In this document: positions 80 to 15,412 of the stretch, one piece after another | How positions within the stretch are numbered: the first letter of the stretch is position 1 | Layout: every line of letters starts with the position of its first letter | NCBI GenBank assembly: GCA_048882485.1 | Contig: JBHLRP010000023.1 | Location: forward strand, 1-45,701 | Direction: 5' to 3' | Source of the DNA: Candidatus Thorarchaeota archaeon | Lineage (GTDB): Archaea; Asgardarchaeota; Thorarchaeia; Thorarchaeales; Thorarchaeaceae | Length of the DNA: 45,701 nt | Program-made: the position numbers and the translations under genes | The notes under the pieces: generated by a model | Told to the model about the DNA's origin: nothing | The model's input: the letters and a program-made list of their open reading frames with translations, nothing else | Databases searched by the model: none

Positions 80-1114
80 CTAAAATTCCATTCTTCGAAA
101 TTTCACGAACGCAATCACAGAGACCACAAGAATCATTCCACAACCTGCAAGGAACCATACAAGCTGCTTGGCCACATACTCCCTGTGTGCTAACCACTCA
201 TCTACTATATCATGTCCAGTGTTGCCCGAGAAGGTGTTGTTCTCCACAGTGTTGAATTCTGATTCATCATCTAGCCAGATGCCAATGTAGTTGTTGTTGC
301 AGGTGTTGTTGGCAATGGTGTTGGAGTCTGATGATTCGAGTGAGATGCCATGCTCCTCGTTGTTGCAGGTGTTGTTCGCCACGGTGTTGGAATCTGATTC
401 ATGGAGCTTGATGCCAATGTAGTTGTTGTTGCAGGTGTTGTTCTTCACGGTGTTGGAATCTGAGCCAGCTAGCCAGATGCCAAAATAGAAGCTGCTGTTG
501 CAGATGTTGTTCGTCACAATGTTGGATTCTGATTCTTTGAGAAGGATGCCACGGGAGTTGCTCCTACAAGTGTTGTTCGCTACGACGTTGTAAGCCGAGT
601 TGAAGAGAAAGATGCCTACAGAATTGTTTTTGCAAATGTTGTTGACTATCTTACCGTTGGTGACATTCTCCAAGTAGATTCCAACTGCATCCCATGCAGG
701 CATAGCAATAGGGTGATGTATATCACCAATAAGACTGCAGTTGCTTATAGTGAAGCTGACTCGCGTGTTCTCGATGCTTATGCAGTAACTCCTTTCCCCA
801 CTGAGGTCAATGTTCAACCCGTCAATTAAATACGGATTCTCAGGAAACCCATCACCAGGCCATCCCTCTCGCATAGCTGTGGCCGTAAAGTTGGCATCCC
901 CATCAATCGCTATGGTAGCATGTGGGGTGAGCTCTCCATCATCCCCAGATGGTAGTGGCAGCATCCAATAATACACTAGACCGCTTGTCATCAAGATGAA
1001 TGTTAGACTGACAGCCACTAAGATAGGATTGGGTTTCGAATACAGGTTCAACTTCTTCATAGGACCCGGAGGTGTCCTACAAACTCTTGAATCGTTCCTC
1101 ACATCTTGTCCCAC
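80..1114 (-). CDS. Membrane-anchored right-handed parallel beta-helix (NosD/CASH-like) protein, cassette 1
   Basis: N-terminal TM (ILVAVSLTFILMTSGLVYYW), ~22-aa repeats GIxLxxSxxNxVxNNTCNNN and a C-terminal TM with basic tail. The likely true start is the GTG at 1102, overlapping the upstream TGA. Confidence 0.85.
   Translation of the reverse strand: MGQDVRNDSRVCRTPPGPMKKLNLYSKPNPILVAVSLTFILMTSGLVYYWMLPLPSGDDGELTPHATIAIDGDANFTATAMREGWPGDGFPENPYLIDGLNIDLSGERSYCISIENTRVSFTISNCSLIGDIHHPIAMPAWDAVGIYLENVTNGKIVNNICKNNSVGIFLFNSAYNVVANNTCRSNSRGILLKESESNIVTNNICNSSFYFGIWLAGSDSNTVKNNTCNNNYIGIKLHESDSNTVANNTCNNEEHGISLESSDSNTIANNTCNNNYIGIWLDDESEFNTVENNTFSGNTGHDIVDEWLAHREYVAKQLVWFLAGCGMILVVSVIAFVKFRRMEF
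278..442. repeat. Intragenic direct repeat: identical 33-mer at 278-310 and 410-442 within 66-nt-period beta-helix coils
   Basis: GATGCCAATGTAGTTGTTGTTGCAGGTGTTGTT occurs twice, 132 nt apart. Confidence 0.8.
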
Positions 1115-1569
1115 TTGAGTCGCCTCCTGATGTTCTCAAACAGGTACACACCAAGCTCTGTTGGTGACATCTCTGGTTGGATACCGATCTCCCACTCCTC
1201 TGCCAGGGTGCGAAGGATCTCCTTGCACTCGTCCATCAAGTCACAGGTACCACAGTCTCCCTCGTGTACAAACCAATTATGAACACCCATCTTGGGAGAG
1301 TAGACGATGTATACTGGTGAGTCATATACGTGACAGAAGCCCTCAGCAATGCCGTATCGAGCACTCAGACGTTCTATCTTCACCCTGTTGACCGACGCGG
1401 CATGTTCTATGAGTTTCTTGATCCGAACCTCTGCTTTCTTCTGCTCTATACTCACATATGGCCTTGACATTCTCAGGTCCTTGGCGATATCTGACGGTCG
1501 GTCCTTCTGCCGCCTCCTAAGCCAGATGAGGTTCTGCTGCTTGGTTGGATATCGCAGAGTGTTGAACAT
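1099..1569 (-). CDS. HTH DNA-binding regulator with C-terminal Cys/His (putative metal-binding) domain, cassette 1
   Basis: HTH RPSDIAKDLRMSRPYVS, H-x2-D-CGTC-x5-C motif and a GAGGGG SD-like sequence. Full-length paralog of 3580..4050. Confidence 0.8.
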   Translation of the reverse strand: MFNTLRYPTKQQNLIWLRRRQKDRPSDIAKDLRMSRPYVSIEQKKAEVRIKKLIEHAASVNRVKIERLSARYGIAEGFCHVYDSPVYIVYSPKMGVHNWFVHEGDCGTCDLMDECKEILRTLAEEWEIGIQPEMSPTELGVYLFENIRRRLKWDKM

Positions 1570-1586
1570 TGTTTCCCCTCTATCAG

Positions 1587-1627
1587 TTAAACAGTTTCGT
1601 TTAACATAATTAAATGAATTTATTTAA
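1587..1627. promoter_or_regulatory. Tandem palindromic operator TTAA-N10-TTAA-N5-TTAA-N10-TTAA upstream of regulator 1
   Basis: Inverted repeats GTTAAAC-N6-GTTTAAC and TTAAAT-N6-ATTTAA. They lie between a minus-strand TTATTA TATA-like box (~1636-1642) and the start codon. Confidence 0.7.
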
Positions 1628-1713
1628 CTACTTGCTAATAAGTCCATCGGTCATTTCTGCACGAATACCAGAGCAAAAAGAAGATGGAGAAAGGAGGTTT
1701 GAATACTCCTTAT

Positions 1714-2508
1714 TCATCTTCGTCTAAGGAAAACGATTACTAACACAATGACGACTACTGCTATTCCAATACCTGCTATGATGAGCATAGTGGTCATGAC
1801 ACCATTAGGAGGCGGGGTCGTTCCATCGGTTGGAGTAGTTGTAGGGGTCGGTATTGTGTAGCCTGGGTCATCACTGACAATGAGGTTGTCTATGGCACAA
1901 CCAGTTGCATTATTGCTATAGATTTGGAGATACGCAGAACTTGTTATACCGGTGTAATCAAAAGAAGCTCTGAGAGTTCCATTGATGCAGACCTCGATGT
2001 GACTTTCACTTGTCCTGTTTACTTTGATATGGTGCCATCCTGGTACGGTATCCATAATCCCGTCTCTGATAATCGAACCAGAAGTTCCCCATTCCCGCCA
2101 GACGATAAACCTATCTAGGAAAAATCCAGCAGAAACATGACTATTGTTTGTTGCTCCTGCCCACGAAACGGTTCCGTTAGATAAGAACTGAACATAGAAA
2201 GCTCCATAATAACCGTCTGGGACATACATATCGAAAATCCAACTCCCTACATTCACAGTACTATCAATTCTGGCAATGTTAACATCATCATCAAGTACTT
2301 CCAACACGCCTGATATAGCGGAGAAGTCGCCATCTATCATGACCTGTGAAGTAGTATTCTCATATCCGTATAATGTCCAACCAGGTAGGTTAGGATCGCT
2401 GAAGTCGTCTTCCCACATTACGGCAGCATTAGTTGTGGTTGTGCATGTTGAAATACAAAGCACCATCATAGCCAATCCTGCAATTAGTTGTATCCATCTT
2501 GTTTTCAT
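1714..2508 (-). CDS. Secreted, C-terminally anchored beta-sandwich (LamG/ConA-like) surface protein
   Basis: Signal peptide, WEDDFSD..GW start, GWHHIKV and IDNLIV strands typical of ConA-like folds, Thr/Pro linker, then TM + RRR. Confidence 0.65.
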   Translation of the reverse strand: MKTRWIQLIAGLAMMVLCISTCTTTTNAAVMWEDDFSDPNLPGWTLYGYENTTSQVMIDGDFSAISGVLEVLDDDVNIARIDSTVNVGSWIFDMYVPDGYYGAFYVQFLSNGTVSWAGATNNSHVSAGFFLDRFIVWREWGTSGSIIRDGIMDTVPGWHHIKVNRTSESHIEVCINGTLRASFDYTGITSSAYLQIYSNNATGCAIDNLIVSDDPGYTIPTPTTTPTDGTTPPPNGVMTTMLIIAGIGIAVVVIVLVIVFLRRR

Positions 2509-2530
2509 TCAATTACCCTCCAATCCCTTT

Positions 2531-3595
2531 TTAGTAGTATTTTCTTCTTCCTGACAACATTCTCCATGCTGCACCCAGTATTATGATTCCTGAGAATCCA
2601 ACAAACAGGAAACCTATAGGATTAAACTCCTCGGTTCCAGCCTCCCCAGTTCCAGCCTCCTCGGTGATATACACCCCGAAGATATCATGTTCGGTGTTGC
2701 CCAAGCAGGTGTTGTCAGCAACGATGTTGGATAGGTCGCCGGAATAGATACCGATCCTGCTGTAGTTGCAGGTGTTAGCGGATATAGTATTGTTATTGCT
2801 GGTGGAAGGGCACGAAGAGTCTACGCAGATGCCACATTCGGTGTTGCTGTTGCAGGCGTTGTTTGCCACGGTGTTGTACACTGAGGAGTCGAGGTAGATG
2901 CCATGTTCAGTGTTGTTGTTGCAGGTGTTGTTCGCTATTGTGCTACTCGATGAATGCGTCAGCTCGATGCCGTGTCCAGTGTTGTTGTTGCAGGTGTTGT
3001 TGACTATATCACAGTTGCCGACAGCCATTGTGCCGATTCCACCTCCATTGTTTGAGCAGTTGTTTTTCGCCACGGTGATATACTCTGAGAAACAGAATAC
3101 GATGCCAACACGGTTGTTGCTACAGGTATTGCTGACTAGCTCGCCGTTGGTGACATTCTCTAGGAAGATTCCAAATTCCTCAGCACCAGTGAGATTACAG
3201 TTGCTAATGACGAAGCTAACTCGCGTATTGCTGATGCTTATGCATCGATTGTATGATCCACCAAAGCCAATAACCAACCCCTCAATTATGAACGGGTTTC
3301 CAGGAGACCCATCACCTAGCCATCCCTCTAGCAGAGCTGTGGCTGAGAAGTTGGCATCCCCATCGATTGCTATGGCACTATGTGGAGTTCTTACAACATA
3401 GTTTCTCTTTTCCCAAGGTTCTAGAAACACTGGGAGAGGTTGCATCAAATAATAGACAAGACCGGTTGTAGTCATGATGAGTGTTAAACTCACAGCCATG
3501 AAGATAGTTCTAGGTTTCAAATGTTGGTTCAGACTCTTCTTGGAACCTGAAGGTATCTGGCAAAATCTTGAGTCGTTCCTCACATCTTGTCCCAT
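2531..3595 (-). CDS. Membrane-anchored beta-helix (NosD/CASH-like) protein, cassette 2
   Basis: Paralog of 80..1114 (shared RNDSR.C, TM, AIAIDGDANF, NNTCNNN repeats, C-terminal TM). The likely start is the GTG at 3583, overlapping the regulator stop. Confidence 0.85.
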   Translation of the reverse strand: MGQDVRNDSRFCQIPSGSKKSLNQHLKPRTIFMAVSLTLIMTTTGLVYYLMQPLPVFLEPWEKRNYVVRTPHSAIAIDGDANFSATALLEGWLGDGSPGNPFIIEGLVIGFGGSYNRCISISNTRVSFVISNCNLTGAEEFGIFLENVTNGELVSNTCSNNRVGIVFCFSEYITVAKNNCSNNGGGIGTMAVGNCDIVNNTCNNNTGHGIELTHSSSSTIANNTCNNNTEHGIYLDSSVYNTVANNACNSNTECGICVDSSCPSTSNNNTISANTCNYSRIGIYSGDLSNIVADNTCLGNTEHDIFGVYITEEAGTGEAGTEEFNPIGFLFVGFSGIIILGAAWRMLSGRRKYY

Positions 3596-4050
3596 TTGAG
3601 TCGTCCCCTGATGATGTTAAACAGATACTCACTGAGCTCTGTTGGAGACATGTTTGGCGGCGCATGGATCTCCCACTCTTCCGCTAATGTGTGGAGGGCC
3701 TCCTTGCATTGAGCCTCTATGTCACAGGTGCCACAGTTTCCTATGTGGTCATACCAGCTCAGTACACCAATTTCGGGGGAGTAGGTGATGTATGTCCGAG
3801 AGTCATTTGCATGACAGTACCCCTCCGCAATGCCATATTGAGTGCTCATTCGTCTTATCTTCACTCGGTTGACTGATGCAGTGTGTTCAATGAGCTTCTT
3901 GATTCGAGCCTCGGCTCTCTTCTGTTCCATGGTGACAAAGGGCCGCGATACTTTCAGGTCCTTGGCGATATCTGTCGGTCGGTCCTTCCGACGACGTCTG
4001 AGCCAGATGATTCCCTGTTGTTTGGTCGGGTACCGTAGAGTGTTGAACAT
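3580..4050 (-). CDS. HTH regulator with Cys/His domain, cassette 2
   Basis: Same length (156 aa) and motifs as 1099..1569 (MFNTLRYPTKQQ, DIAKDL, CGTCD, LAEEWEI, RLKWDKM). Confidence 0.8.
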   Translation of the reverse strand: MFNTLRYPTKQQGIIWLRRRRKDRPTDIAKDLKVSRPFVTMEQKRAEARIKKLIEHTASVNRVKIRRMSTQYGIAEGYCHANDSRTYITYSPEIGVLSWYDHIGNCGTCDIEAQCKEALHTLAEEWEIHAPPNMSPTELSEYLFNIIRGRLKWDKM

Positions 4051-4066
4051 TAATCTCCCTCTTCAT

Positions 4067-4107
4067 TTAACCAGTCATAGTTAAATGATTTAACAAGAAT
4101 ATGTTAA
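4067..4107. promoter_or_regulatory. Tandem palindromic operator TTAA-N10-TTAA-N5-TTAA-N10-TTAA upstream of regulator 2
   Basis: CATTTAAC-N8-GTTAAATG and TTAACA-N6-TGTTAA, with the same TTAA spacing as 1587-1627. A TTATTA box lies upstream on the minus strand. Confidence 0.7.
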
Positions 4108-4252
4108 CAACTTAGTAATAAGTTCATCGGTGTTCTAGAGTTCACTACACACCAAGACTAGCAAACACGAAGATCTCCCAGTAGAGCGGAGTGGAATCCT
4201 GCAAACAGACATTTATCCTAGTCAATGATGAACGCATTCGAGGGTAGGCGTT

Positions 4253-4903
4253 TTGATAAGAAAAGTTGCGAAGGCTCTGATATACCTGACATACTATAAC
4301 ATCTGCCTCCTGATTTTTGCGAGTGGTATTTACCTAAACATAATCACATTGGTCGCCATCGCTCTAGACCAGATTGTCGTTTTTGCAGATATAATGATAC
4401 GACCCTCAACACCATTGGAAGATGCTGACACCACAACTAAGTTGGTAGGCCTTCTATTATTGGTACATCCATTCTTTCTGGGCATTCTCTTCTATGAGCA
4501 TCTCTTTCTGACCTCGACATTTTTAATCGCTCTCGACGCTCCCGTTATCTCTTACATTGGTATCATTGTCTATATTGTGGGAGGGATACTTGTTCTACGG
4601 AGTAGAATCCAGCTCGGAAGGTATGGGGATGGGACTCCTGCATTGAAGGAAGACCACCACCTCTTGCCCGAGGGAATCTACAGCCACATCCGTCATCCAT
4701 TATACTCAGGAGGAATGCTAGGACGTATTGGGCTTGGTCTATCATTTCGAGGCTACTTGGGCACAATCGTGTTCGTATTGGTCTATTTCATAATATTCAG
4801 AAAGAGAATGGAGATTGAGGAACAATCATTGCTATCTGAGTTCGGAGAAGAGTATGAGGAATATATGAAACGAACCAAACGTTTCTTCCCTTGCATCTAT
4901 TAA
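4253..4903 (+). CDS. Isoprenylcysteine carboxyl methyltransferase / PEMT family membrane methyltransferase
   Basis: Multi-TM protein with the family motifs GIYSHIRHPLYSG, EEQSL..EFGEEYEEY and KRFFP. Confidence 0.85.
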   Translation: MIRKVAKALIYLTYYNICLLIFASGIYLNIITLVAIALDQIVVFADIMIRPSTPLEDADTTTKLVGLLLLVHPFFLGILFYEHLFLTSTFLIALDAPVISYIGIIVYIVGGILVLRSRIQLGRYGDGTPALKEDHHLLPEGIYSHIRHPLYSGGMLGRIGLGLSFRGYLGTIVFVLVYFIIFRKRMEIEEQSLLSEFGEEYEEYMKRTKRFFPCIY

Positions 4904-4928: not shown

Positions 4929-6782
4929 TCAGATCGTTCCTCGTCGCCGGAGCGCATAGACAGCAACGACAATCAATATCGCTCCGCCGCCGACCAACCC
5001 AATGACTATTGTGTTACTCGACCATCTTACCGAGAAGACTGAGTCAGACACATCCTCTGCGGTGAGTCCGGAGGCCCCTCTGGCGATAACACGTATGAGA
5101 TACTGATCTGTTTCTGGTAATCCCCTGGCATCCCATGCAATTGAAGTGCTATCATAGGTACTGATTATCACATTCCATGTTTCTCCAGCATCTGTGGAAT
5201 AGAAGACATCATATGAAACAATAAGACCCCAGGACTCAACAGAGTCAGTCCATGTGATCTCATAATCTCCACCAATTGTTTCACCACCATTTGGAGTGAG
5301 GACTGTCGGGGCTGACAGGGTGTGGCTTTTGACTTCATACATCGCATTGGTCGTGTACTCTGAAATCAGTCCATCAGTACATTGTGCAGCAATTCTGATT
5401 CTGCATTCAGTACTCTCCAAGAAATCTGATGAATTCCAGTTCAGATTTGTATCAATCAGCCCGTGAACAAGTTCAATCCACGAAGATCCTCCATCTGCCG
5501 AAGCTGATACATTGTAGATAACATCGTGTCCAAATGTGTCGCTAGAAACACTCCAAGCAATCTGAATCTGCCCCCAGAATCTCTCTCCATCCAACGTTTC
5601 GTTCGGATAGATCAATCTTGGCTTTGTGAGGATATGCATCAAGTCCGTCAGGAAAACCCTGATATACGGTTCAGAATCGCTCTGTCCCACACCAAATGGA
5701 TACGCGTGGTCAACAATATCATTCTCATCATCATCTGGCCAAGTCCATGCATCATAATAATTCCCAATGACATCGTTGTTGGAACCGGAAATATCTAGAT
5801 AGGTAGCAGCTTCCACAAATCCAAGATTGTTCTCTATTAGATTGTTCTGCGTGACGTAGTTGTTATCTGATTGAATGCGAAGCCCCTGCATCTGACTTCT
5901 GTGGAACGTGTTTGAAATGATGTCTGAAGAATCTCCAGACAAATCAAGAGAATAAGAACCGCTCTCGTGCACAACATTGTCCTTGATTACACAAGTCGCG
6001 GATGCTTCAATTGAGATACCATCTGATAGACTGAAGCCTACGAGATTCCTTTCCAGTCTACATCTAGGCGAGTTTCCAAGCTTGATGCCGCTCATGCCGC
6101 TTGTGACTGTATTGAGAGTTATATTATTCTCAGAGGAATCTCGTAGACGAATACCATCATGCAAGAGATCGCTTACAACATTGTCAGAGATCGAGCAGTT
6201 ATTCGTATAGTCTGCAAGAATACCCCATCCGTTCACACTATCAATCGTGTTGTTCGAGTATTCACAATATTCTGAACCTAGAGAATACAATCCCGCGGAA
6301 TCTGGACCGCTAATGTCTTGGATTGTGTTATTTGTCACTATAACATCATCTGACTCGGTCACGAGTATACCAGAACTCTGCGAGTCTTGGATTGTATTAT
6401 TCCAGACCTTGGCATTTGTCACATTATCCAGAAGAATTCCCATTGCGCCTCCAACTAAAAGGCATCCCCGAACCTCAAAGAATACTGTTGAGTTCCCTAT
6501 TTGAATTGGGGAGGTCCCTGCAGTGGTGATATTCAATCCCTTGACTATATAGGGGTCGCTCACTGAACCATTGCCATCCCAAGAGTTAGCAGAAGCCTGA
6601 TCTGCGAAGTCGCTGTCATTGGAAATATGGATAGGAGGTGCTTCATCATAGGCGGGAACGAAGCCTCTTGATACATCCCGACTCTGTCTACTGCTATGGC
6701 TGTCGAAGTAACACCATGTCGCTGTTAGTGGACATACAACGAGTAGAGTTAGGCAGAATAGGATTGCTGCTATCCTTCGCAT
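4929..6782 (-). CDS. Surface protein: beta-helix (NosD-like) + two Ig/Fn3-like domains + C-terminal TM
   Basis: Signal peptide, GNGSVSDPYIV cap, beta-helix repeats, PN(GG)E..I.W..Y..S.DGG..W domains, then TM + RRR. Confidence 0.8.
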   Translation of the reverse strand: MRRIAAILFCLTLLVVCPLTATWCYFDSHSSRQSRDVSRGFVPAYDEAPPIHISNDSDFADQASANSWDGNGSVSDPYIVKGLNITTAGTSPIQIGNSTVFFEVRGCLLVGGAMGILLDNVTNAKVWNNTIQDSQSSGILVTESDDVIVTNNTIQDISGPDSAGLYSLGSEYCEYSNNTIDSVNGWGILADYTNNCSISDNVVSDLLHDGIRLRDSSENNITLNTVTSGMSGIKLGNSPRCRLERNLVGFSLSDGISIEASATCVIKDNVVHESGSYSLDLSGDSSDIISNTFHRSQMQGLRIQSDNNYVTQNNLIENNLGFVEAATYLDISGSNNDVIGNYYDAWTWPDDDENDIVDHAYPFGVGQSDSEPYIRVFLTDLMHILTKPRLIYPNETLDGERFWGQIQIAWSVSSDTFGHDVIYNVSASADGGSSWIELVHGLIDTNLNWNSSDFLESTECRIRIAAQCTDGLISEYTTNAMYEVKSHTLSAPTVLTPNGGETIGGDYEITWTDSVESWGLIVSYDVFYSTDAGETWNVIISTYDSTSIAWDARGLPETDQYLIRVIARGASGLTAEDVSDSVFSVRWSSNTIVIGLVGGGAILIVVAVYALRRRGTI

Positions 6783-6818: not shown

Positions 6819-8642
6819 TCAGGTCTTGCTTGTCCTCTTCTTCTTCAGAATAATCACTACAACTATCGCTACCGCAACACCTGTAATCCCCCCTCCAATC
6901 AAGAGCGGAGTCAAGTCTGGTCCTCCTGTTGGTGTCGTGGGTGTAGTTGTCACATGCTGAATCGAAAATAACACAGAGATGGCTTCAGATGATAATCCCC
7001 CGTCTGCCGAAGCAACAATCTTTACGACATAGGTGTCATCTTCTTCAAGTTGAGAGACGTCCCACTGATAGCTCGTACCAGTCAAACCGGAAGCTAGATC
7101 ATTCCAATCATAGCCTCCAGTCGATGAATATTGTATAGAATAACTCACAATCCATCCCCAAGAATCTACAACAGCATCCCATTCGATCGTGAGACTTCTA
7201 TCGAATGGGCCAGAATTAGCTGGCGACCTGATAGTGACCTCTGACAAAGCATGCGGTATCAATGAGAATTCCGCATCAGAGTCGTCTGTTACATTCAGGC
7301 CCTCTGAACATTCAGCAATTACTCGAATTAGATAATGACCCGTCTTCAATTCAGCAGTCGTGTCCCACTCGTATTGAGTGGTAGTCAGATTCCCGACTAT
7401 CTTTTCCCAATCGACGCCTGAGTTACTAGAAACATAGATCGAATAATTGACCTCATGACTCTCTGAATCATAACTTGGAATCCACTGTATGGTGGCAGAG
7501 TCTGTAATTACCTCTCCACCATTCGGATATAGTACTCTAATTGGTGTGAGGAAGTGGACCACGGATGCGTTTGCAGGCTTGGTCAATGGAAATGGGTCCT
7601 CATTCATTGCAGCTCCTTCAAGCGCATAGGGAAAGTCCACAATCTGGTCAGAATTTGCATCAGGAGTTGTCCAATCACTCCAGTAATTGTACTGAACAGT
7701 CACAGAGGCGTCATCAAGCGCTTGAGAAGTCCCGCCAATATTGTTGCCTTTGAATGCGTTCCACTTTATCGTGTTATTGCCTGATGATGCTTCCACGTAG
7801 AACGCATGTTCTGTAGAGTTTTCGACAGTGTTGACAAGAATGTTGTTTCCACTTGCATTATGAGAAAGATGTATACCACATGTATTAGGATTCAGGTCAG
7901 CTGGATCAAAGATTCGATTGAAGGCGATATTGTTCAAAGTGGACTGATTGGATATCCACATCGCATTGTCGTTGCCAAACAGCAAATTCTCGAAGACCTG
8001 ACAACTATTTGTGTTCCTGAGCCAGATACCCAGTTCATCATTATACACTGTATTATTCCAAATCTCGAGATGTGTCGAATAATTGGCCCAGATGCCATTG
8101 TAGGTGTTTTGATACACCTCGTTATTCCGAATTCTTACATCCGTTGAGCCGTTAATTCTGATTCCACTCTGAGATGTATTGCAGACCTCGTTGAGTGTGA
8201 TGTTTATGCTCTGACAATCTTTGTCCAAGAATATCCCGTGTCTGTTATTGACCACAGTATTGTTGTACACTAGCCCATTCTTCGCGTTTCGTATATAGAT
8301 TGCATCCAATGATGAGGTTATACTATCAAGGTAGTTGTTCTGGATTACAAAGAACGCTTCAGTATTCTCAATTACTATCAATTCGAAGTTGCTGTCAGTG
8401 ATATTGTAGCCCTCTATTCTGTATGGTGTGCCTTTATCTCCCGTCCCGGGAAATCCATAACTGCTGAAGTCGGCATCACTAAGGATGGCGATTGGTCCTC
8501 TATTTGCATATGAACTCTGAAATCCACTGTTCTCATTCGTCATCTGAAGAGATTCTCCTACAGAGGGAATCTCCGAAGACACAGTACAGTTTATTATCAT
8601 AGATAATAGAAGAGCTAGACCAATCCACGCGAACCTTCTCAA
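6819..8642 (-). CDS. Surface protein: beta-helix + two Ig/Fn3-like domains + Thr linker + TM (paralog of 4929..6782)
   Basis: Same architecture (GTGDKGTPYRI cap, NYWSDW, VLYPNGGE, TTTPTTP, TM KKKR). TTG start with GAGGAGG SD. Confidence 0.8.
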   Translation of the reverse strand: MRRFAWIGLALLLSMIINCTVSSEIPSVGESLQMTNENSGFQSSYANRGPIAILSDADFSSYGFPGTGDKGTPYRIEGYNITDSNFELIVIENTEAFFVIQNNYLDSITSSLDAIYIRNAKNGLVYNNTVVNNRHGIFLDKDCQSINITLNEVCNTSQSGIRINGSTDVRIRNNEVYQNTYNGIWANYSTHLEIWNNTVYNDELGIWLRNTNSCQVFENLLFGNDNAMWISNQSTLNNIAFNRIFDPADLNPNTCGIHLSHNASGNNILVNTVENSTEHAFYVEASSGNNTIKWNAFKGNNIGGTSQALDDASVTVQYNYWSDWTTPDANSDQIVDFPYALEGAAMNEDPFPLTKPANASVVHFLTPIRVLYPNGGEVITDSATIQWIPSYDSESHEVNYSIYVSSNSGVDWEKIVGNLTTTQYEWDTTAELKTGHYLIRVIAECSEGLNVTDDSDAEFSLIPHALSEVTIRSPANSGPFDRSLTIEWDAVVDSWGWIVSYSIQYSSTGGYDWNDLASGLTGTSYQWDVSQLEEDDTYVVKIVASADGGLSSEAISVLFSIQHVTTTPTTPTGGPDLTPLLIGGGITGVAVAIVVVIILKKKRTSKT

Positions 8643-8920: not shown

Positions 8921-11900
8921 CTATCCTTTATCTTCTAGCCTTTTTCGTCTAAATGTGTATACGATGCCAACAACTGCAACACCTGCAAGTAAAACCCCAA
9001 GGATAAGATACGTGTAGATCGATAGTGGTATCTGATATGGTTGACCTGCTATTCCAAATAGTGATAGATGCGTCACCTGGGCCCAAACGTATCCAGCGTA
9101 GCTTTCACCATAGACTTCTACGTCCGTAGTATTCACACCTGTTCCAAGAACCCAGTCCAACTCCTCTGTGAGTTTGATCCACATGTCTGTAGTCTCATCA
9201 AACATATAGAGCGATAGTGTCGTTTCATTGACATCTTCAGGGTCTGCGAACAGTCCATTGGAATTCATATCGAGGTCTGCCGCTCTGTAGTACAACCTGA
9301 TAGTGGCTTCCTGAAGAATATCTGTACCCGCCTCTGGAGTGGTGAGAACGACTTCGAGGTACTTGCCAATTGCGATATCATTCCCTACCAGACCGCTCTC
9401 GATTGTCAACTGCTGTGGGGTGTCAGAGTGATCGTAGCGAGCTAACTGGATAATTGGTGAAGACAACTCTACCAGGGCAATTGAAACGATGGAATCAGTT
9501 GTCTTTACTATGTCTATGTCATCTAATCGGAAGTAGTACGAGTATGTCCAGTTATGAAAGACCTCGGCGACGTTATAGTCTATGAGAATTGATTTAGGCA
9601 GGATCGTGACATCTCTACCTCGCAGTATCTGAATTACTTTATAGACATCAGATTTTGCTGCCTCGGAGAGCATGACCACGGTCTGATTATCATCCCAGAC
9701 ACTATAACGAACGGCTATCTCGTGAGAATCGGCTTCCATCATATCGGCAAGTTTGCTCCCGGTGTCAGCAAGAAGGTCGTGCGCAACTCCGCAGACTCCT
9801 TCGCTCTCTGCATCAGGTTTCCCAATAAGTACAATATACCTGCTATCTGTGTAGGACTCCAACAACTCATCAACAGTGACCACGATCACATCTGCATATT
9901 TCTCAAGTTCCGCTATGAAAACCAGACTTGAAATCTCCTGTGCCGGGTCATAGGCAACGACGATGGTTCCACCGAATCCCGCAAAGGTGTCTGGATCTTC
10001 TCCATCTGGTACTCCATCCCAATCAGAATCATGTGACCATGGATTGCTGCCTAATCCTAGTTCTTCTCCATCGAGAACGCCATCGGCATCAGTATCATTG
10101 TGGAGGTAGTCTAGCCACAGCTCAATCTCAAGTCCGTCTTCAACACCATCTCCGTCTGTGTCATTGGAGGTAGCGCTCGTTCCAATCACAGCCTCATCGC
10201 CATCAAGAACGTTATCTCCATCAGAATCCGCGTTTAGTGGATCAGAACCATTCTGGAACTCCAATCCATCAAACCAGAAGTCGCCATCTGAATCTTGGTG
10301 GAGGAGGCTGGTCGCGTGTTGATATTCGAGGGCATCAGGTGCTCCATCTCCATCCGTATCCCCACTATTGGGGTTTGAATTGAGTTGGAATTCAATGAGG
10401 TCAGACAGAGTATCTCCATCCGAATCAGTCACAGAGGGATCGCTGCCAAAATGAAGTTCAATCCCGTCTCCGAGTAGATCTCCGTCCGAGTCCCACAGAG
10501 TCAAGTTTGGTCCTAAGCTACTTGAGAAGCTGAGACTCAATGATTGTGAGAATCCATAGTGCATGGAATACATTGGTGGCACATACGGTATCTCTGGATA
10601 TGTTTGAAGCCACCATTCCTCGTGGTCCGAAGCGCCATCCGAGTCTGTATCTGGCGTGTTTGGATTAGACCCCAAGGTGTATTCAGTGTGATCTGAGAGT
10701 CCATCAAAGTCTGTATCGCTCAATCTGGGATCGCTGGTGACATAGAATGTCAGGCTCTCGGTAGCACTGAACTCCACGTAGATCTCCCATCCTTCGACCT
10801 CTTCGGTATTGGTCAGGCCGTCATCGTCCCAATCAGGATTGGAGTCCATGATGAAGGAGCTTGCCGGCCCTACGTTCTGCGAGAACTTCCAAATCCTTGA
10901 GGTTGAGGGTGGAGTTCCACGTTCGACGGTATCGAGAATGAAGATGTTCTTGTTAGAATCAACTGTGACTGCGATTGGCTGGGTGAAGTTCGCTGTCCCA
11001 TTCCCATACAGGGTGAACGACTTATGTTCAAGTCCATTTGAGTCGAACTTTCTAAGACATGGTCCTTCAGTCGTGTTCCCGAGGACATACACATAGCCAT
11101 CTGAGTCCACATCAATATCTTCCACCGTTACGAACCCATCAGGAAGAGTTGTCAGATACGCTCCATCTGACATTCGGAACTTAGCGACCCTTGTATAGTC
11201 ATAATGCCATGGTTCCGCTTTCTCGCCAATGTATACGTAACCATTTGCAGAGTCGACCGCAATGGCCAATGGATGGTCAAAATCCTCCGGCCCTGGGGTA
11301 CCAGTACACCAGGAACCCCATGTTGTGAGTAGCGCTCCCGACGAATCGTGAACTTCTATTGGATCTAGAAGAGGACCTGGATAACCAAGGATATGTCCTT
11401 CTGTGTACACACATTCGTAATTCGTCATAAAGATGGTTCCTGCCGAATTGATATCTAAGTCAGACTTATGATACGGGACAGTAGCATATAGATCGGGTTC
11501 ATTATAGAATGGCATCACCGCCTTTGTTTCGGGTGTGTAGGTCCCTGGGTTCAGTATTGAACCGTCCAGGTTGAATCGCAAGAGAATGAGATTCCAGTCC
11601 CACCTGTATGTCCAAGCATAGAGCCAGTCGTTTGCTGTGTCAACCTCAAGCTCAAATACGCTGCCATCGATCTCCCAACTATCACCTGAGGTGAAGTATG
11701 AGGTGTCAGGTAGAATCATCTCTGTAAGATTTGGATAGAACTTCTTGATTTCGTCATAGTAGTCATCGCCGAAGCTGGAAGCGTAGACATATCCATATTC
11801 ATCAACAGCAATGTCCTCTACCACACGAGCCATCAGTTCTGGATTTGCAAATTCAACATACTGTCCATCCCAGCCCCAAGCAAATGTCTCTATGTCGCAG

Positions 11901-14900
11901 CTGGTTTCGTAGGACGCCATAGAAATGATTCTTGGACCCAGCACATCTGCAACAGCGTCACCATTCGTGTCGTTCGTTCTTGGATTGGTATTGCTGTAGT
12001 ATTCGTCGAGATCATTGATGCCATCTCCATCGGCATCAATGTGAATGGGATCAGAGGTCACACGAATTGAAAATGGGAGAGAAACATTGTCCATATAGTC
12101 AAAATCTATCACCCATCCTGCAACCTCGATGTAGTCATTCAAGCCATCTTTATCAGAATCTGAGTCTGTTGCATTTGTTCCATAGATGACCTCATAGAAA
12201 TCAAGCAGACCATCACCGTCAGAATCATACGAGGAGGGGTCCGTGCTGCTCTGTTGCACCTCATAAGCATCATTCAGCTTATCGCCATCAGAGTCATAGT
12301 CATACCTTGACGAAACTCCTGATTCCGCGTCGTTCTTGAGGCCATCTCCATCGAAGTCATTTGAAACGATGCCCCTCCAATTCATAAAATCATCAATATT
12401 GCCAGGAAGAACATCGAAGTAGAGTCTAGTGTAATATGGCTCAAATCCCGATTGAGTGCTTTGGAGTATGCTGATGATTTCGTCATTATGATAGCACTCG
12501 AATTCTCCAAACCATTCGTGGTACCACCTGTTCCAGATTTTATACCATGATGTCAGTCCTATTGCCACAGGCAGGTTTGGCATTGCATGTGATAACACAA
12601 AGGATTCAGTTTGTAGATACTGCGCTTGAATCCATGCAGGATTATCAGAGAATCTCGTATCCGGAGGAATATAGTATTCTGTGGTACCTGGGACTTGTAT
12701 TGAAGAGAATATACCCCCTATGGGATCTTCGTAGTTCACAGACAGAAAGAAACTGGGCCAGCACATGCTTTCTGCAAGTCGACCTGCCACATCAGTTCCA
12801 TTTGCGTTTGCTCTACCAATCATTGTGGTTACAATGGTCACTACATCACTCACGTCGAGTCCATTCTTGTCTAAGTCTTGGTAGGATACATCGATGTCTG
12901 AGATGTAGGCCGCAGGCCACATGAACACAGACCGCTTTTGCTCCCCAAAGATGAAGTTGATGAAGAATTCCTTGATCAAATCACCAAGCCCGAGATTCTT
13001 TCCTCCAATCCATCCTAGCAACTCATCTACGAGACTGAAGATTGCAAAGACTCCTCCTGTAAGAACAGACAGATAGAATGTCAATTGGGGTCCAATGACT
13101 GCATCATATAGAAACGTGATGATTCCCCACGTAGCACCATATTCCCTACCTCCACTGCCTCCTATTGCCTCAGCAATTTCAATACCAGCCCAAATAGTCA
13201 GTCCTAGCATAACTGCATACGTCAGGACTTGAATCACTACACCTGCCTTTGACATGCCCTTGAATCGTCCTGTGCATTCCGTTGCGGCGACAGCTCGATC
13301 AGCCAATGCCTGAGCTGTCTTTTCGCCAATTGACAGTTTGTCAAAGTAATATCTCAGTTTGAGGAATACTCTGGGTATTTGTTTCAAGAACATTAGTCCA
13401 GATTTGATATAGAAGTTAACAGAATCCTTCACTGAAGTAATATCACTAATCTCGGCATCGGGTAGACTTACATCTGTTCCATCAACAACTGTGACAACTT
13501 CGACTACTGAAAACCACTTGATAGATGAGATGAGCAGATGATAGTTCACATCATCATCTGTAGTCCAACCAGTCACTTCATTTGCGAACTCATCGAGTGA
13601 TAACGGCTGAAAACTTGTTGTGTTGTATATGTTCATCTTCAGCATCTTTGAAGTAGTAGTACCCAGTGAAGAGAAATCGATTGAGAATGAGGTGGCAACG
13701 GGTAAGTCTGATAGGTCAACTATCTTGTGTTCATTGTCATTTACGATGGTTATTGGCAGAACTCGATTGGAACTGAGGTTCAGAAGCGCACGGGGCAGCA
13801 TTCTATTGCTCATTGATTGAAATGCAACATACTTGCTTTCGAACGATTCAATGGTACTATTCACATCAGCCCCATTGCTAGAAAGAATTGCAGGCATGTC
13901 TGAGATTGAAGTCGTTGTATTTCTCAGGTGCATGTATTCTAGAAGTAAAGTAGAGCCAATCGTGATGTTCCTATCTTCATGATAGAAAATGCCAACATCC
14001 GAGTTATACCACTCCTCAAGATTGATCCCAGAAAAGCAATACTGCTCTTCATAGGTTGCAAGATGTATTGGCTCGCTTGCTGGACTAAGGTCATAGATGT
14101 CAAAGTTGGTCTCCTGAGTACCATTAGCATAGAGCACTCCATCAGAACCAACTGACACATAATATTGGCCCTGTTTCAAGGAGAGGGAGGTACCGTCAAT
14201 ACTATATTCGAATATTGCAGATTCGCTGATATCAGTCCCATTGAAATAAAGAGTACCCGCTGGTGAAACAGTGAGTATAGGTCCATTGACTAATCGTAAT
14301 GCAACCTGACTGTTTTCTAGTTCAATCCATTGAATTGCAGCGTCATTCATTTCACTGGAATTTGCCACAGCTTTGGCATCCGCTCCAATTGTCACATACT
14401 TACCAATATCTGGCGCTCTCAATGCCTTAGGGATGAAGTCTGAATTGCCATTAACTCTCCAAATCAGCTCAGCATCGAATGAGATCCCTGAAGTCCCTGG
14501 ATTTGGGTAATATATTCTACCACTCAACGCCACTACATCATTCCTTTCAGTTATCGGATTGAGTCTGATGAACATTCCATTGGATGTTTCAACAATTCCT
14601 TGCTCTTGCATGGAGCTTGCATCGGGTAAATCTGAAGTAGTGACATTCAACAGAGGTATGACCGTGACATCATCCTTGGAGTCGTCCAAATCTCTCATGA
14701 TGCCCTCATTGTCATTTGGCCAGTTCCATGTCTGAGCGAGTAATCTCAGGTGTTCTGGATTGTCAGGAATAATCTGAAGATCGATGTAAACCGGCTTCCC
14801 GTTGGTAGCAATATCAAAATGAAATGAGGCACCAGTTGTGGAACTGGCATAGGGACTTAGGTCAATTGCATCGTTCACACCATCCCCATCATTGTCAAAA

Positions 14901-15412
14901 TCCCAGCCATTCTTGATGCCATCTCCATCTGAGTCTACATGAACTCCATCACAGACATTATCCCCATCGACATCGACTTCGAATTTATCTACGAACCCAT
15001 CATCGTTTGAATCAGGATTCAATGGATCTAGGTCATTGTACACTTCAAAATCATCACTCAACAAATCTCCATCAGTGTCATTATCATAACGATTAGTAGC
15101 AATAACAGATTCAACGATATCTGGAATTGTATCACCGTCTGAATCCGTCATGTGCGAGGGTGGCGTTGCGGAAATTAATTCCATGACGAGCTCACCCAAT
15201 GAAACTGGTGTTTTGGGATCTGCGATATCTGATAGAATGTTGTGATACTCAGGAGCATTTCCAAATGAGAAATCTAATTCTTGGGAATCAGGAATCTCAG
15301 GAAATTGCATGTCTGCAATTCTCGACACATCCACGCAAACAAGAAGCCCGATGACTAATATCGTGACTCCTATCATAGCTTTCCTTTTCATATTAGCCAC
15401 CAACCCAACCAA
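8921..15412 (-). CDS. Giant (2163 aa) multidomain surface protein with TSP3-like Ca-binding repeats, fascin-like beta-trefoil, hydrophobic helical region, NHL propeller and C-terminal TM
   Basis: Many DxDGDGxxDxxE repeats, NHL-like P..IAVD repeats, a signal peptide and a TM + RRKR tail. The likely start is the ATG of MKRK at 15391. Confidence 0.8.
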   Translation of the reverse strand: MVGLVANMKRKAMIGVTILVIGLLVCVDVSRIADMQFPEIPDSQELDFSFGNAPEYHNILSDIADPKTPVSLGELVMELISATPPSHMTDSDGDTIPDIVESVIATNRYDNDTDGDLLSDDFEVYNDLDPLNPDSNDDGFVDKFEVDVDGDNVCDGVHVDSDGDGIKNGWDFDNDGDGVNDAIDLSPYASSTTGASFHFDIATNGKPVYIDLQIIPDNPEHLRLLAQTWNWPNDNEGIMRDLDDSKDDVTVIPLLNVTTSDLPDASSMQEQGIVETSNGMFIRLNPITERNDVVALSGRIYYPNPGTSGISFDAELIWRVNGNSDFIPKALRAPDIGKYVTIGADAKAVANSSEMNDAAIQWIELENSQVALRLVNGPILTVSPAGTLYFNGTDISESAIFEYSIDGTSLSLKQGQYYVSVGSDGVLYANGTQETNFDIYDLSPASEPIHLATYEEQYCFSGINLEEWYNSDVGIFYHEDRNITIGSTLLLEYMHLRNTTTSISDMPAILSSNGADVNSTIESFESKYVAFQSMSNRMLPRALLNLSSNRVLPITIVNDNEHKIVDLSDLPVATSFSIDFSSLGTTTSKMLKMNIYNTTSFQPLSLDEFANEVTGWTTDDDVNYHLLISSIKWFSVVEVVTVVDGTDVSLPDAEISDITSVKDSVNFYIKSGLMFLKQIPRVFLKLRYYFDKLSIGEKTAQALADRAVAATECTGRFKGMSKAGVVIQVLTYAVMLGLTIWAGIEIAEAIGGSGGREYGATWGIITFLYDAVIGPQLTFYLSVLTGGVFAIFSLVDELLGWIGGKNLGLGDLIKEFFINFIFGEQKRSVFMWPAAYISDIDVSYQDLDKNGLDVSDVVTIVTTMIGRANANGTDVAGRLAESMCWPSFFLSVNYEDPIGGIFSSIQVPGTTEYYIPPDTRFSDNPAWIQAQYLQTESFVLSHAMPNLPVAIGLTSWYKIWNRWYHEWFGEFECYHNDEIISILQSTQSGFEPYYTRLYFDVLPGNIDDFMNWRGIVSNDFDGDGLKNDAESGVSSRYDYDSDGDKLNDAYEVQQSSTDPSSYDSDGDGLLDFYEVIYGTNATDSDSDKDGLNDYIEVAGWVIDFDYMDNVSLPFSIRVTSDPIHIDADGDGINDLDEYYSNTNPRTNDTNGDAVADVLGPRIISMASYETSCDIETFAWGWDGQYVEFANPELMARVVEDIAVDEYGYVYASSFGDDYYDEIKKFYPNLTEMILPDTSYFTSGDSWEIDGSVFELEVDTANDWLYAWTYRWDWNLILLRFNLDGSILNPGTYTPETKAVMPFYNEPDLYATVPYHKSDLDINSAGTIFMTNYECVYTEGHILGYPGPLLDPIEVHDSSGALLTTWGSWCTGTPGPEDFDHPLAIAVDSANGYVYIGEKAEPWHYDYTRVAKFRMSDGAYLTTLPDGFVTVEDIDVDSDGYVYVLGNTTEGPCLRKFDSNGLEHKSFTLYGNGTANFTQPIAVTVDSNKNIFILDTVERGTPPSTSRIWKFSQNVGPASSFIMDSNPDWDDDGLTNTEEVEGWEIYVEFSATESLTFYVTSDPRLSDTDFDGLSDHTEYTLGSNPNTPDTDSDGASDHEEWWLQTYPEIPYVPPMYSMHYGFSQSLSLSFSSSLGPNLTLWDSDGDLLGDGIELHFGSDPSVTDSDGDTLSDLIEFQLNSNPNSGDTDGDGAPDALEYQHATSLLHQDSDGDFWFDGLEFQNGSDPLNADSDGDNVLDGDEAVIGTSATSNDTDGDGVEDGLEIELWLDYLHNDTDADGVLDGEELGLGSNPWSHDSDWDGVPDGEDPDTFAGFGGTIVVAYDPAQEISSLVFIAELEKYADVIVVTVDELLESYTDSRYIVLIGKPDAESEGVCGVAHDLLADTGSKLADMMEADSHEIAVRYSVWDDNQTVVMLSEAAKSDVYKVIQILRGRDVTILPKSILIDYNVAEVFHNWTYSYYFRLDDIDIVKTTDSIVSIALVELSSPIIQLARYDHSDTPQQLTIESGLVGNDIAIGKYLEVVLTTPEAGTDILQEATIRLYYRAADLDMNSNGLFADPEDVNETTLSLYMFDETTDMWIKLTEELDWVLGTGVNTTDVEVYGESYAGYVWAQVTHLSLFGIAGQPYQIPLSIYTYLILGVLLAGVAVVGIVYTFRRKRLEDKG

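Follow-up and report, generated by a model that had tools for sequence, protein, structure and literature searches.

The window, as we call the whole stretch of DNA that we analysed, comprises the first 45.7 kb of contig C23 from a Candidatus Thorarchaeota archaeon (own-genome assembly of 3.96 Mb in 157 contigs). It opens with two cassettes of the same design on the minus strand, cassette 2 running from 4108 to 2531 and cassette 1 from 1628 to 80. Each cassette comprises a GTTAA-repeat array placed as an operator would be, a gene for a 156-amino-acid (aa) regulator with a helix-turn-helix (HTH) domain, and an overlapping gene for a partner protein with a cytoplasmic N terminus, two transmembrane (TM) segments and a NosD-like beta-helix ectodomain. 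Comparison of these cassettes with their relatives in other archaea revealed that regulators of this family are nearly always followed by a gene for a membrane protein, and that these membrane proteins share a short cytoplasmic motif and little else. The features of the two cassettes are the following.

4116..4121, minus strand: TTATTA (TATA-like) of cassette 2, just upstream of the array; invariant in 8 orthologous upstream regions that were aligned
4067..4108, minus strand: candidate operator array of cassette 2, with five GTTAA/TTAAC sites including a 9-nucleotide (nt) inverted repeat, TCATTTAAC/GTTAAATGA
3580..4050, minus strand: regulator 2 (reg2), 156 aa; sigma4/LuxR-type HTH, long helix, domain of four strands and two helices
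3706-3747, minus strand: Cys3(His) site of reg2, codons 102-115
2531..3595, minus strand: partner 2 (bh2), 354 aa; 29-aa cytoplasmic tail, TM segment, beta-helix ectodomain, second TM segment; 16-nt overlap with reg2
3560-3562, minus strand: invariant Cys12 of partner 2
1714..2508, minus strand: 264-aa third gene of cassette 2; its product has a signal peptide, a beta-rich domain, a Thr/Pro linker and a TM segment at the C terminus
1636..1641, minus strand: TTATTA (TATA-like) of cassette 1, invariant
1586..1628, minus strand: candidate operator array of cassette 1, with three GTTAA/TTAAC sites including a perfect inverted repeat, GTTAAAC-N6-GTTTAAC
1099..1569, minus strand: regulator 1 (reg1), 156 aa; Cys3(His) site at codons 102-115 (1225-1266), C79 at 1333-1335
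1123..1128, minus strand: AGGAGG Shine-Dalgarno sequence within the 3' end of reg1, 8 nt ahead of the partner's GTG start at 1112-1114
80..1114, minus strand: partner 1 (bh1), 344 aa; tail (1025-1114), TM segment, NosD-like beta-helix ectodomain with 11 sequons, second TM segment
1079-1081, minus strand: invariant Cys12 of partner 1

The original prediction had described a unit present twice, in which an operator and a regulator are followed by a membrane beta-helix protein, with the regulators alike and the partners more diverged. The open reading frames agree with this description, a GTTAA-repeat array lies ahead of both regulators, and the two regulators are 71% identical (E 1e-87) while the two partners are 50% identical (E 2e-90). 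The cysteine cluster that it had noted (C-H and H-x3-CGTC-x5-C) corresponds to C79-H80 and H102-x3-C106-G-T-C109-x5-C115 in both copies, and the short tail, TM segment, beta-helix ectodomain and second TM segment that it had assigned to the partner were likewise found in both. Its ATGTGA junction was right as to the sequence and the overlap but not as to the conserved partner start: the 3' end of the regulator gene reads ...AAG/AAA TGG GAC AAG ATG TGA, in which ATGTGA is the final codon and the stop, and the start conserved among orthologs lies 12 nt upstream (GTG at 1114, ATG at 3595; in copy 1 this is the start with the AGGAGG ahead of it), so that the overlap is 16 nt and not 4. The nearly invariant K/R-W codon pair at the C terminus of the regulator (AAG/AAA TGG; 1111-1116 and 3592-3597) forms the GTG or ATG of the partner in the +2 frame, and the conservation of W153 may partly reflect this overlapping start codon.

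The arrays stand out against both the window and the genome. There are 28 GTTAA/TTAAC sites in the window, five of them within 4067-4108 and three within 1586-1628, and the former array is the sole 100-nt stretch of the window with at least four. The genome-wide density is 0.06 sites per 100 nt, and clusters of at least four sites within 90 nt number three in the genome against 0.06 expected, two of the three being upstream of regulators of the family. The third (G000:C43:9671-9699) lies just upstream of a 96-aa open reading frame (9692-9982) that is not a family member, and could be either an extra target of a regulator or a chance occurrence. The order of elements is the same in both cassettes: the invariant TTATTA comes first, and three to five GTTAA/TTAAC sites, which form local dyads, come after it. 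The TTAA cores are fixed in position across orthologs and the spacers between them vary. Judging from its sequence and placement, TTATTA would be the promoter element. More distant subfamilies have the direct repeat AGTTGCATGAAATCGGTTAA, the first copy of which adjoins TTTATA.

Regulator and membrane partner are paired in two archaeal phyla

An exhaustive profile search of 1.84 billion representatives found only 167 clusters of this family. Members are present in 76 of the 87 genomes of the window's class, with up to eight copies each, and in 109 of the 301 genomes of the phylum, where they are concentrated in three families; none was found in 68 genomes of family f9 or in 28 genomes of family f5 of the same phylum. 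The family is not specific to Asgard archaea, as it is also found in 22 of 401 genomes of a second phylum (TACK). The genome from which the window derives has five members, two in the window and one each on contigs C5, C39 and C13. Downstream of the C5 member lie a beta-helix partner and a third gene homologous to that of cassette 2, downstream of the C39 member a DUF5122-like propeller protein, and downstream of the divergent C13 member a pair of bPH_2 membrane proteins. Pairs in tandem, at a spacing of about 3.1 kb, occur in other genera as well (G044:C7, G067:C78, G057:C151 and G052:C36), which indicates that the duplication seen in the window is old.

To survey the pairing we used 118 distinct regulator homologs from Asgard and TACK genomes and metagenomes. 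A TM-containing gene lies directly downstream on the same strand of 108 of them, in both phyla, and the adjacency on which the original prediction depended is thus the rule among homologs. Overlaps of 1-34 nt are found at 75 of the 108 pairs and, a few miscalled starts aside, most of the others lie within +20 nt. Among the ten unpaired entries, one missed the threshold for a TM segment (L019) and one is masked by Ns (L031), both of which do have partners; another is at a contig end (L104) and another is ambiguous (L010). A candidate fusion of regulator and partner (L081; G146:C8:127112-128857, approximately 581-592 aa) was rejected as an artefact, since its frame reads through a run of Ns (XXXX), and at every other locus inspected the two proteins are encoded by separate genes. 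Some members contain in-frame TAG, TGA or TAA stops (G052:C36:4311-4775, G025:C43:10061-10516 and G181:C154:24786-25247), which suggests pseudogenised copies or sequencing errors within an expanding family.

One tail motif precedes many unrelated membrane bodies

In the partners encoded in the window, a basic tail of 30 aa with six lysine or arginine residues leads into a TM segment at approximately residues 31-49, and the second TM segment near the C terminus is followed by a short basic end. The ectodomains match PF05048 (E 1e-31 and 2e-21), PF13229 and TIGR03804 (E 1.5e-36) and carry 11 N-x-S/T sequons. We rejected a NosD function for the partner because generic parallel beta-helix repeats alone account for the match: TIGR04247 gives 65 and 48 bits against a cut-off of 300, and there are no adjacent nos genes. 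The tail itself gave no match to RskA, zf-HC2 or RsgI_N.

Across the family, the regions that follow the first TM segment fall into 31 groups that are unrelated by BLAST. The partner bodies include beta-helix and propeller-like proteins, bPH_2, bPH_5 and SdpI/DUF1648 proteins, and proteins with 2, 4, 6 or 8 TM segments, and since many of them are multi-TM proteins without an ectodomain, no single class of ligand can apply to all. The sole element common to all of the groups is a motif in the tail ahead of the TM segment, [C/I/L/V]-[P/R/Q/K]-x-P, and in an alignment of 35 diverse partner N termini Cys12 is the sole invariant column. The cysteine occurs in the contexts R-[V/I]-C-[P/R/Q]-x-P-P, A-C-R-[I/L]-P, W-C-[R/P]-x-P and P-V-C-L-K-x-P, and distant pairs keep the motif: NYCPHP precedes an 8-TM protein, GWCPMT a protein of the SdpI family and NFCRLG a bPH_5 protein, and other tails read FCRIPP, WCRRP and PVCLKHP. 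Regulators that are 88-94% identical, with similar tails, are joined to ectodomains that are unrelated to each other (beta-helix, propeller-like and other), from which it follows that the regulator and the tail constitute a conserved module to which exchangeable bodies are attached. By analogy, this modular pattern is the same as that of the anti-sigma and RsgI systems of bacteria.

Subfamily B (24 pairs, for example L005:1354-3383) departs from this scheme in the tail. Its regulators are longer (166-218 aa), carry extra sequence inserted in the region of the HTH and have aspartate at position 79; it is present as a single copy in most Thorarchaeota genomes and is followed by one or two bPH_2 (YdbS/YdbT-like) membrane proteins. 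The tail reads G-K-V-I-[R/K]-P-P-x-E...S-G-K-x-F-[R/K]-P, with V-I-[R/K]-P-P at the place of the cysteine. In the window's own genome a gene for an ABC-transporter ATPase is divergent from the subfamily B cassette.

A tail that is constant at the start of variable proteins might be a by-product of gene arrangement, that is, of a coincidental operon with variable surface or membrane genes in which overlapping frames or a recombination hotspot conserve the tail without its having any function. The 16-nt overlap does constrain the first five codons of Thorarchaeota-type partners, and the conserved K/R-W codons of the regulator do create the ATG or GTG of the partner. The invariant cysteine, however, is codon 12-20 and lies outside the gene overlap, the motif persists in lineages with a 4-nt overlap or none, and both cysteine codons are in use (TGT 43 times, TGC 32 times). 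We therefore regard this explanation as very improbable.

In cassette 2, the third gene begins 22 nt past the end of partner 2, and homologs of it follow a beta-helix partner at no fewer than seven other loci (L003, L018, L019, L020, L038, L042 and L043). The contig ends 79 nt beyond partner 1, so any third gene of cassette 1 would be cut off. The 264-aa product had no Pfam or NCBIfam match; its look-alikes in a language-model comparison are clusters of ConA-like 3-keto-disaccharide-hydrolase/LamG proteins (0.89-0.91), which serve as a lead only, and all that it has in common with several other surface proteins of its genome is the C-terminal Thr/Pro linker and TM anchor. Further surface-protein genes lie nearby. 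One, on the minus strand (4929-6782), encodes a 617-aa protein with a signal peptide, a NosD-like beta-helix, BNR-like repeats and a C-terminal TM segment, and more large ones lie beyond it (6819-8642 and 8921-15412). The beta-helix of this free-standing 617-aa protein is 32% identical to the ectodomain of bh1 (E 2e-18), a resemblance that suggests the recruitment of the sensor ectodomain from ordinary surface proteins. Divergent from reg2, at 4253-4903 on the plus strand, is a gene for a membrane methyltransferase of the PEMT/ICMT family (PF04191, E 1e-10; PF04140, E 3e-8). It was considered as a member of the system and rejected, as a homolog lies beside a cassette in only one array of the same genus (L042). 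DNA near-identical to the window is present in sediment metagenomes.

Fold and cysteine site of the regulator

The AlphaFold2 model of the regulator (predicted local distance difference test, pLDDT, 90) has helices at residues 10-20, 25-32 and 36-60, four consecutive strands at 63-100, and helices at 112-125 and 136-151. Residues 5-56 superpose on EnfR, a regulator of the Tfx family (8hno_A; VIA-align Z 9.1, root-mean-square deviation (rmsd) 1.9 Å over 52 residues, 31% identity), and the same HTH also superposes on a sigma region 4 and on LuxR/GerE domains. The likeness to EnfR is confined to the first ~55 residues of the regulator: a full-length Foldseek alignment to 8hnp has an rmsd of 13 Å, the Tfx model TIGR00721 aligns with residues 10-62 only (16.5 and 16.3 bits against a cut-off of 60.25), and there was no match to PF14601 (TFX_C) at E<=0.1. 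The predicted topology of the C-terminal domain is beta4-alpha2 with a Cys cluster, whereas that of EnfR, which is without the cluster, is beta-alpha-alpha-beta-beta (PMC10570040). We therefore rejected membership of the Tfx family for the regulator, which has a Tfx-like DNA-binding half only. Nor is the regulator ArsR-like according to a domain scan and structure comparison, and the 156-aa protein, which has one HTH only, gave no match to Sigma70_r2. The C-terminal domain modelled alone (pLDDT 90) had no Foldseek match among solved structures at E<=0.001, and its best VIA-align Z among 48,161 chains was 3.9. Structural look-alikes over the whole length (TM-score 0.88-0.92) were found in three ESM-Atlas clusters, mostly of Bathyarchaeota and Methanobacteriota.

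Residues H102, C106, C109 and C115 are among those invariant in 32 Thorarchaeota sequences. Across the wider family G95, W99, C106, C109 and C115 are invariant and H102 is replaced in some distant members, so that the site is C-x2-C-x5-C, usually with H-x3 ahead of it. The spacing H-x3-C-x2-C-x5-C is identical to that of the His-ligated 4Fe-4S cluster of NuoG-type proteins (PF10588, NADH-G_4Fe-4S_3), to which the match is weak (13.3 bits against a cut-off of 27, E 0.063). From the ligand pattern, a zinc ion would be as possible at this site as a His(Cys)3-ligated 4Fe-4S cluster.

The presence of this cluster and that of the tail cysteine may be linked. Both are present in 73 pairs, the cluster alone in 24 (subfamily B) and neither in 10, and in the one pair with a tail cysteine and no cluster (L119) the gene is interrupted by TGA, so that no pair combines a tail cysteine with an intact regulator devoid of the cluster. 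Nine of the 10 pairs that have neither belong to a TACK clade that has lost C-x2-C-x5-C (WYWHDNPEE...; L099, L101, L108, L110, L111, L113, L114, L122 and L123), in which the 4-nt overlap and varied membrane proteins are retained and the tails read G-W-[L/I/V/F]-P-x-x-P (the W-x-P clade), with a hydrophobic residue at the place of the cysteine of the other subfamilies. This pattern fits with the tail cysteine acting at the metal site of the regulator. Another candidate for the residue that accompanies the tail cysteine, C79, was rejected: although first counts gave 52 pairs with C79 and a tail cysteine and 21 with aspartate and none, asparagine, serine or histidine occurs at position 79 together with a tail cysteine in L052 and L055, in P0144, P0126 and P0135, and in f22 genomes.

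The same site opens the way to an explanation in which the regulator is the sole sensor, its zinc or His-ligated 4Fe-4S site reporting redox state, oxygen, nitric oxide (NO) or a metal, while the membrane protein is the regulated product and the tail motif serves for insertion, topology or modification. This accords with the spacing shared with PF10588, weak as that match is, with the invariance of the cluster in Thorarchaeota subfamilies A and B, the latter having it without a tail cysteine, and with the near-restriction of the operator arrays to the family's own operons, as expected of plain autoregulation of a surface-protein operon. We nevertheless think it rather unlikely. It leaves unexplained why one short cytoplasmic motif should be all that is conserved over some 30 unrelated bodies, strictly beside regulators of this family and in both phyla. 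The exchange of ectodomains behind an unchanging unit of regulator and tail is likewise unaccounted for, as is the retention of both the pairing and a W-x-P-x-x-P tail by the clade that lost the cluster.

A candidate mechanism and its known counterparts

Taken together, these comparisons lead us to consider it moderately probable that the regulator represses its own operon and is itself controlled by the partner's cytoplasmic tail, which it would bind, possibly via a shared metal site. Each cassette would then be a self-contained, autoregulated signalling unit of two proteins, with a third gene in cassettes of the beta-helix type. The regulator would act as a dimeric-type DNA-binding repressor, with an HTH and a long helix as in Tfx/EnfR, that binds the GTTAA array, downstream of the TATA-like box and upstream of the regulator's start codon, and the site in its C-terminal alpha/beta domain is predicted to hold zinc or an Fe-S cluster. 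Translational coupling would ensure that regulator and partner are made in fixed proportion. The basic tail would dock on the regulator, its probable place of contact being the metal site or the vicinity of that site, where the tail cysteine might serve as an extra or exchangeable ligand, and the variable membrane or extracellular body would supply the signal and so set the state of the regulator, either held at the membrane or free for DNA. In the window the body that supplies the signal would be a NosD-like beta-helix and elsewhere a propeller, a bPH domain, an SdpI-like protein or a multi-TM bundle; for the beta-helix class a polysaccharide, which the original prediction had suggested as a ligand alongside a metal, would be a reasonable candidate.

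Docking of the tail need not release the regulator from DNA. In a 'co-component' arrangement such as ToxR/ToxS or VtrA/VtrC, the tail would recruit the regulator into an active complex that binds DNA at the membrane as an activator or a repressor. Archaeal repressors usually sit between the TATA box and the start codon and activators do not, and the operator of the cassettes has the position usual for a repressor; a true fusion of regulator and partner, moreover, was not seen, the lone candidate being the N-run artefact. The comparative evidence is the same for this arrangement as for control by sequestration, and archaeal transcription regulators located in the membrane are known (ArnR, PMC6396743; survey, PMC10269533). 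We judge a tethered active complex to be quite unlikely, although present evidence separates neither tethering nor sequestration from the other.

We modelled the complex from the regulator alignment, zinc and tail residues 1-32, alongside three controls. The score was 0.35 (0.28, 0.35 and 0.41 in individual runs) against 0.02 for the best of the three controls, the runs agreed in at least 87% of contacts and the pLDDT of the partner was at least 44. The prediction thus lends weak support to a contact between the regulator and the N-terminal tail such as the original prediction had envisaged. In a benchmark, the same mark was reached by 58 of 80 solved complexes and by 2 of 110 mismatched pairs.

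Several observations weigh against control of the regulator by the tail. At scores of 0.60 or below, the mark of the complex prediction was reached by only 7 of the 80 solved complexes and by both mismatches. The joint loss of the cluster and the tail cysteine is one evolutionary event, and the tree shows only two to three changes of state; adjacent co-inherited genes would, moreover, show correlated conservation even without contact between their products. Subfamily B keeps the cluster without a tail cysteine, so that a shared metal site cannot be universal, and the regulator might, with a metal site of its own, sense redox state or metal without any partner. Finally, approximately six homologs (L080, L106, L109, L112, L115 and L120) have no partner on the same strand.

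The cassettes are reminiscent of several known systems. Like bacterial extracytoplasmic function (ECF) sigma factors and their transmembrane anti-sigma factors (including the zinc-binding ones, ZAS), they consist of a presumably co-transcribed, often translationally coupled regulator and a single-pass membrane protein with a conserved cytoplasmic N-terminal module, a TM segment and a highly variable extracytoplasmic domain; autoregulation, which is predicted for the cassettes, would be a further common trait, both have a sigma region 4 fold in the DNA-binding domain of the regulator, and both have an H-x3-C-x2-C motif within the system. This motif, however, is in the regulator of the cassette and in the membrane protein of the ECF system, and there is no detectable homology outside the HTH. 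The cassette has neither sigma region 2 nor the logic of the RNA-polymerase core (archaea use TBP and TFB), and its tail is a peptide of approximately 15-45 aa with one invariant cysteine, whereas the ECF anti-sigma module is a helical domain of about 80 aa. Hence, of the sigma/anti-sigma-like logic that the original prediction had proposed, the paired and modular layout held (108 of 118 homologs, 31 groups of bodies), while membership of such systems did not, there being no sigma region 2 and no anti-sigma domain. The SigI-RsgI systems of cellulolytic clostridia likewise have several paralogous pairs per genome, in tandem and with swapped ectodomains of carbohydrate-binding type; the cassettes differ from them in that no RsgI_N or SigI domain was detected and in having a small Tfx-like regulator.

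In the SdpR-SdpI system of Bacillus subtilis, the membrane partner sequesters the autorepressor of its own operon, and regulator-SdpI operons have been noted in archaea too (PMC2910880). As the cassettes are proposed to be, it is a two-gene autoregulated operon whose membrane protein controls the repressor, and one distant member of the family, the only such pair, is followed by an SdpI/DUF1648-family protein (PF13630) with a Cys-Pro tail. The differences are that the cassette regulator combines a sigma4/Tfx-like domain with a metal domain whereas SdpR is of ArsR type, that the partners in the window are beta-helix proteins and not SdpI, and that the proposed docking element is the N-terminal tail. 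A logic as in ECF sigma/anti-sigma, SigI/RsgI and especially SdpR/SdpI is, by these analogies, the best-supported reading of the cassettes.

Among archaeal regulators, EnfR (TON_1525, 8hno) and other Tfx proteins resemble the cassette regulator in being approximately 150 aa long with two helices and a long 'stem' helix. EnfR is a dimeric repressor that acts on a pseudo-palindrome (PMC10570040), and the inverted repeats at its own promoter region that it binds are of the sort expected for the cassette regulator. The authors of that study noted that Tfx-type regulators are without an effector domain and may need an antirepressor, as yet unidentified (PMC10570040); no membrane partner has been described for Tfx/EnfR. 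ArnR and ArnR1 of Sulfolobus (PMC6396743; TTR survey, PMC10269533) also control transcription from the archaeal membrane, but with the DNA-binding domain and the TM segment in one polypeptide, whereas the cassette divides them between two genes. Our literature searches, which covered Tfx, signalling in Asgard archaea and Thorarchaeota, archaeal anti-sigma factors and membrane-bound transcription, found no description of the family or of its layout, consistent with the view of the original prediction that no archaeal family of this layout had been described. Control of a regulator by a co-encoded membrane protein is a known kind of system; what is new is the family with its metal domain, its occurrence in archaea and the proposed docking by a peptide tail.

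A more far-reaching proposal, which we regard as doubtful, is that of a pan-archaeal system (Asgard, TACK and probably methanogens) in which a sigma4-like factor is clasped to the tail of a sensor via an intermolecular metal site, formed by three cysteines with or without the histidine of the regulator and by the cysteine of the tail, and in which redox change, loss of metal or a conformational signal from the sensor releases or captures the factor. If this were true, the cassettes would be an archaeal functional analogue of sigma/anti-sigma signalling with a free-standing sigma4-type domain as its building block, and they might throw light on how contacts between sigma4 and anti-sigma factors arose.

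To our knowledge, archaea have been thought to be without a counterpart of the transmembrane route provided in bacteria by ECF sigma and anti-sigma factors. The known archaeal options are a few two-component systems and one-component membrane-bound regulators. The regular pairing rule described here, in which a regulator is followed by an overlapping start, a Cys-Pro tail, a TM segment and an exchangeable body, extends over more than 100 loci in two phyla and points to a dedicated, modular and rapidly diversifying signalling family for which there is no Pfam model. If the regulator is controlled through the tail of its partner, the cassettes might exemplify the logic of a 'missing antirepressor' that has been put forward for Tfx/EnfR, to which the regulator is related, and the family provides an entry point to the regulation of variable surface proteins in Asgard archaea.

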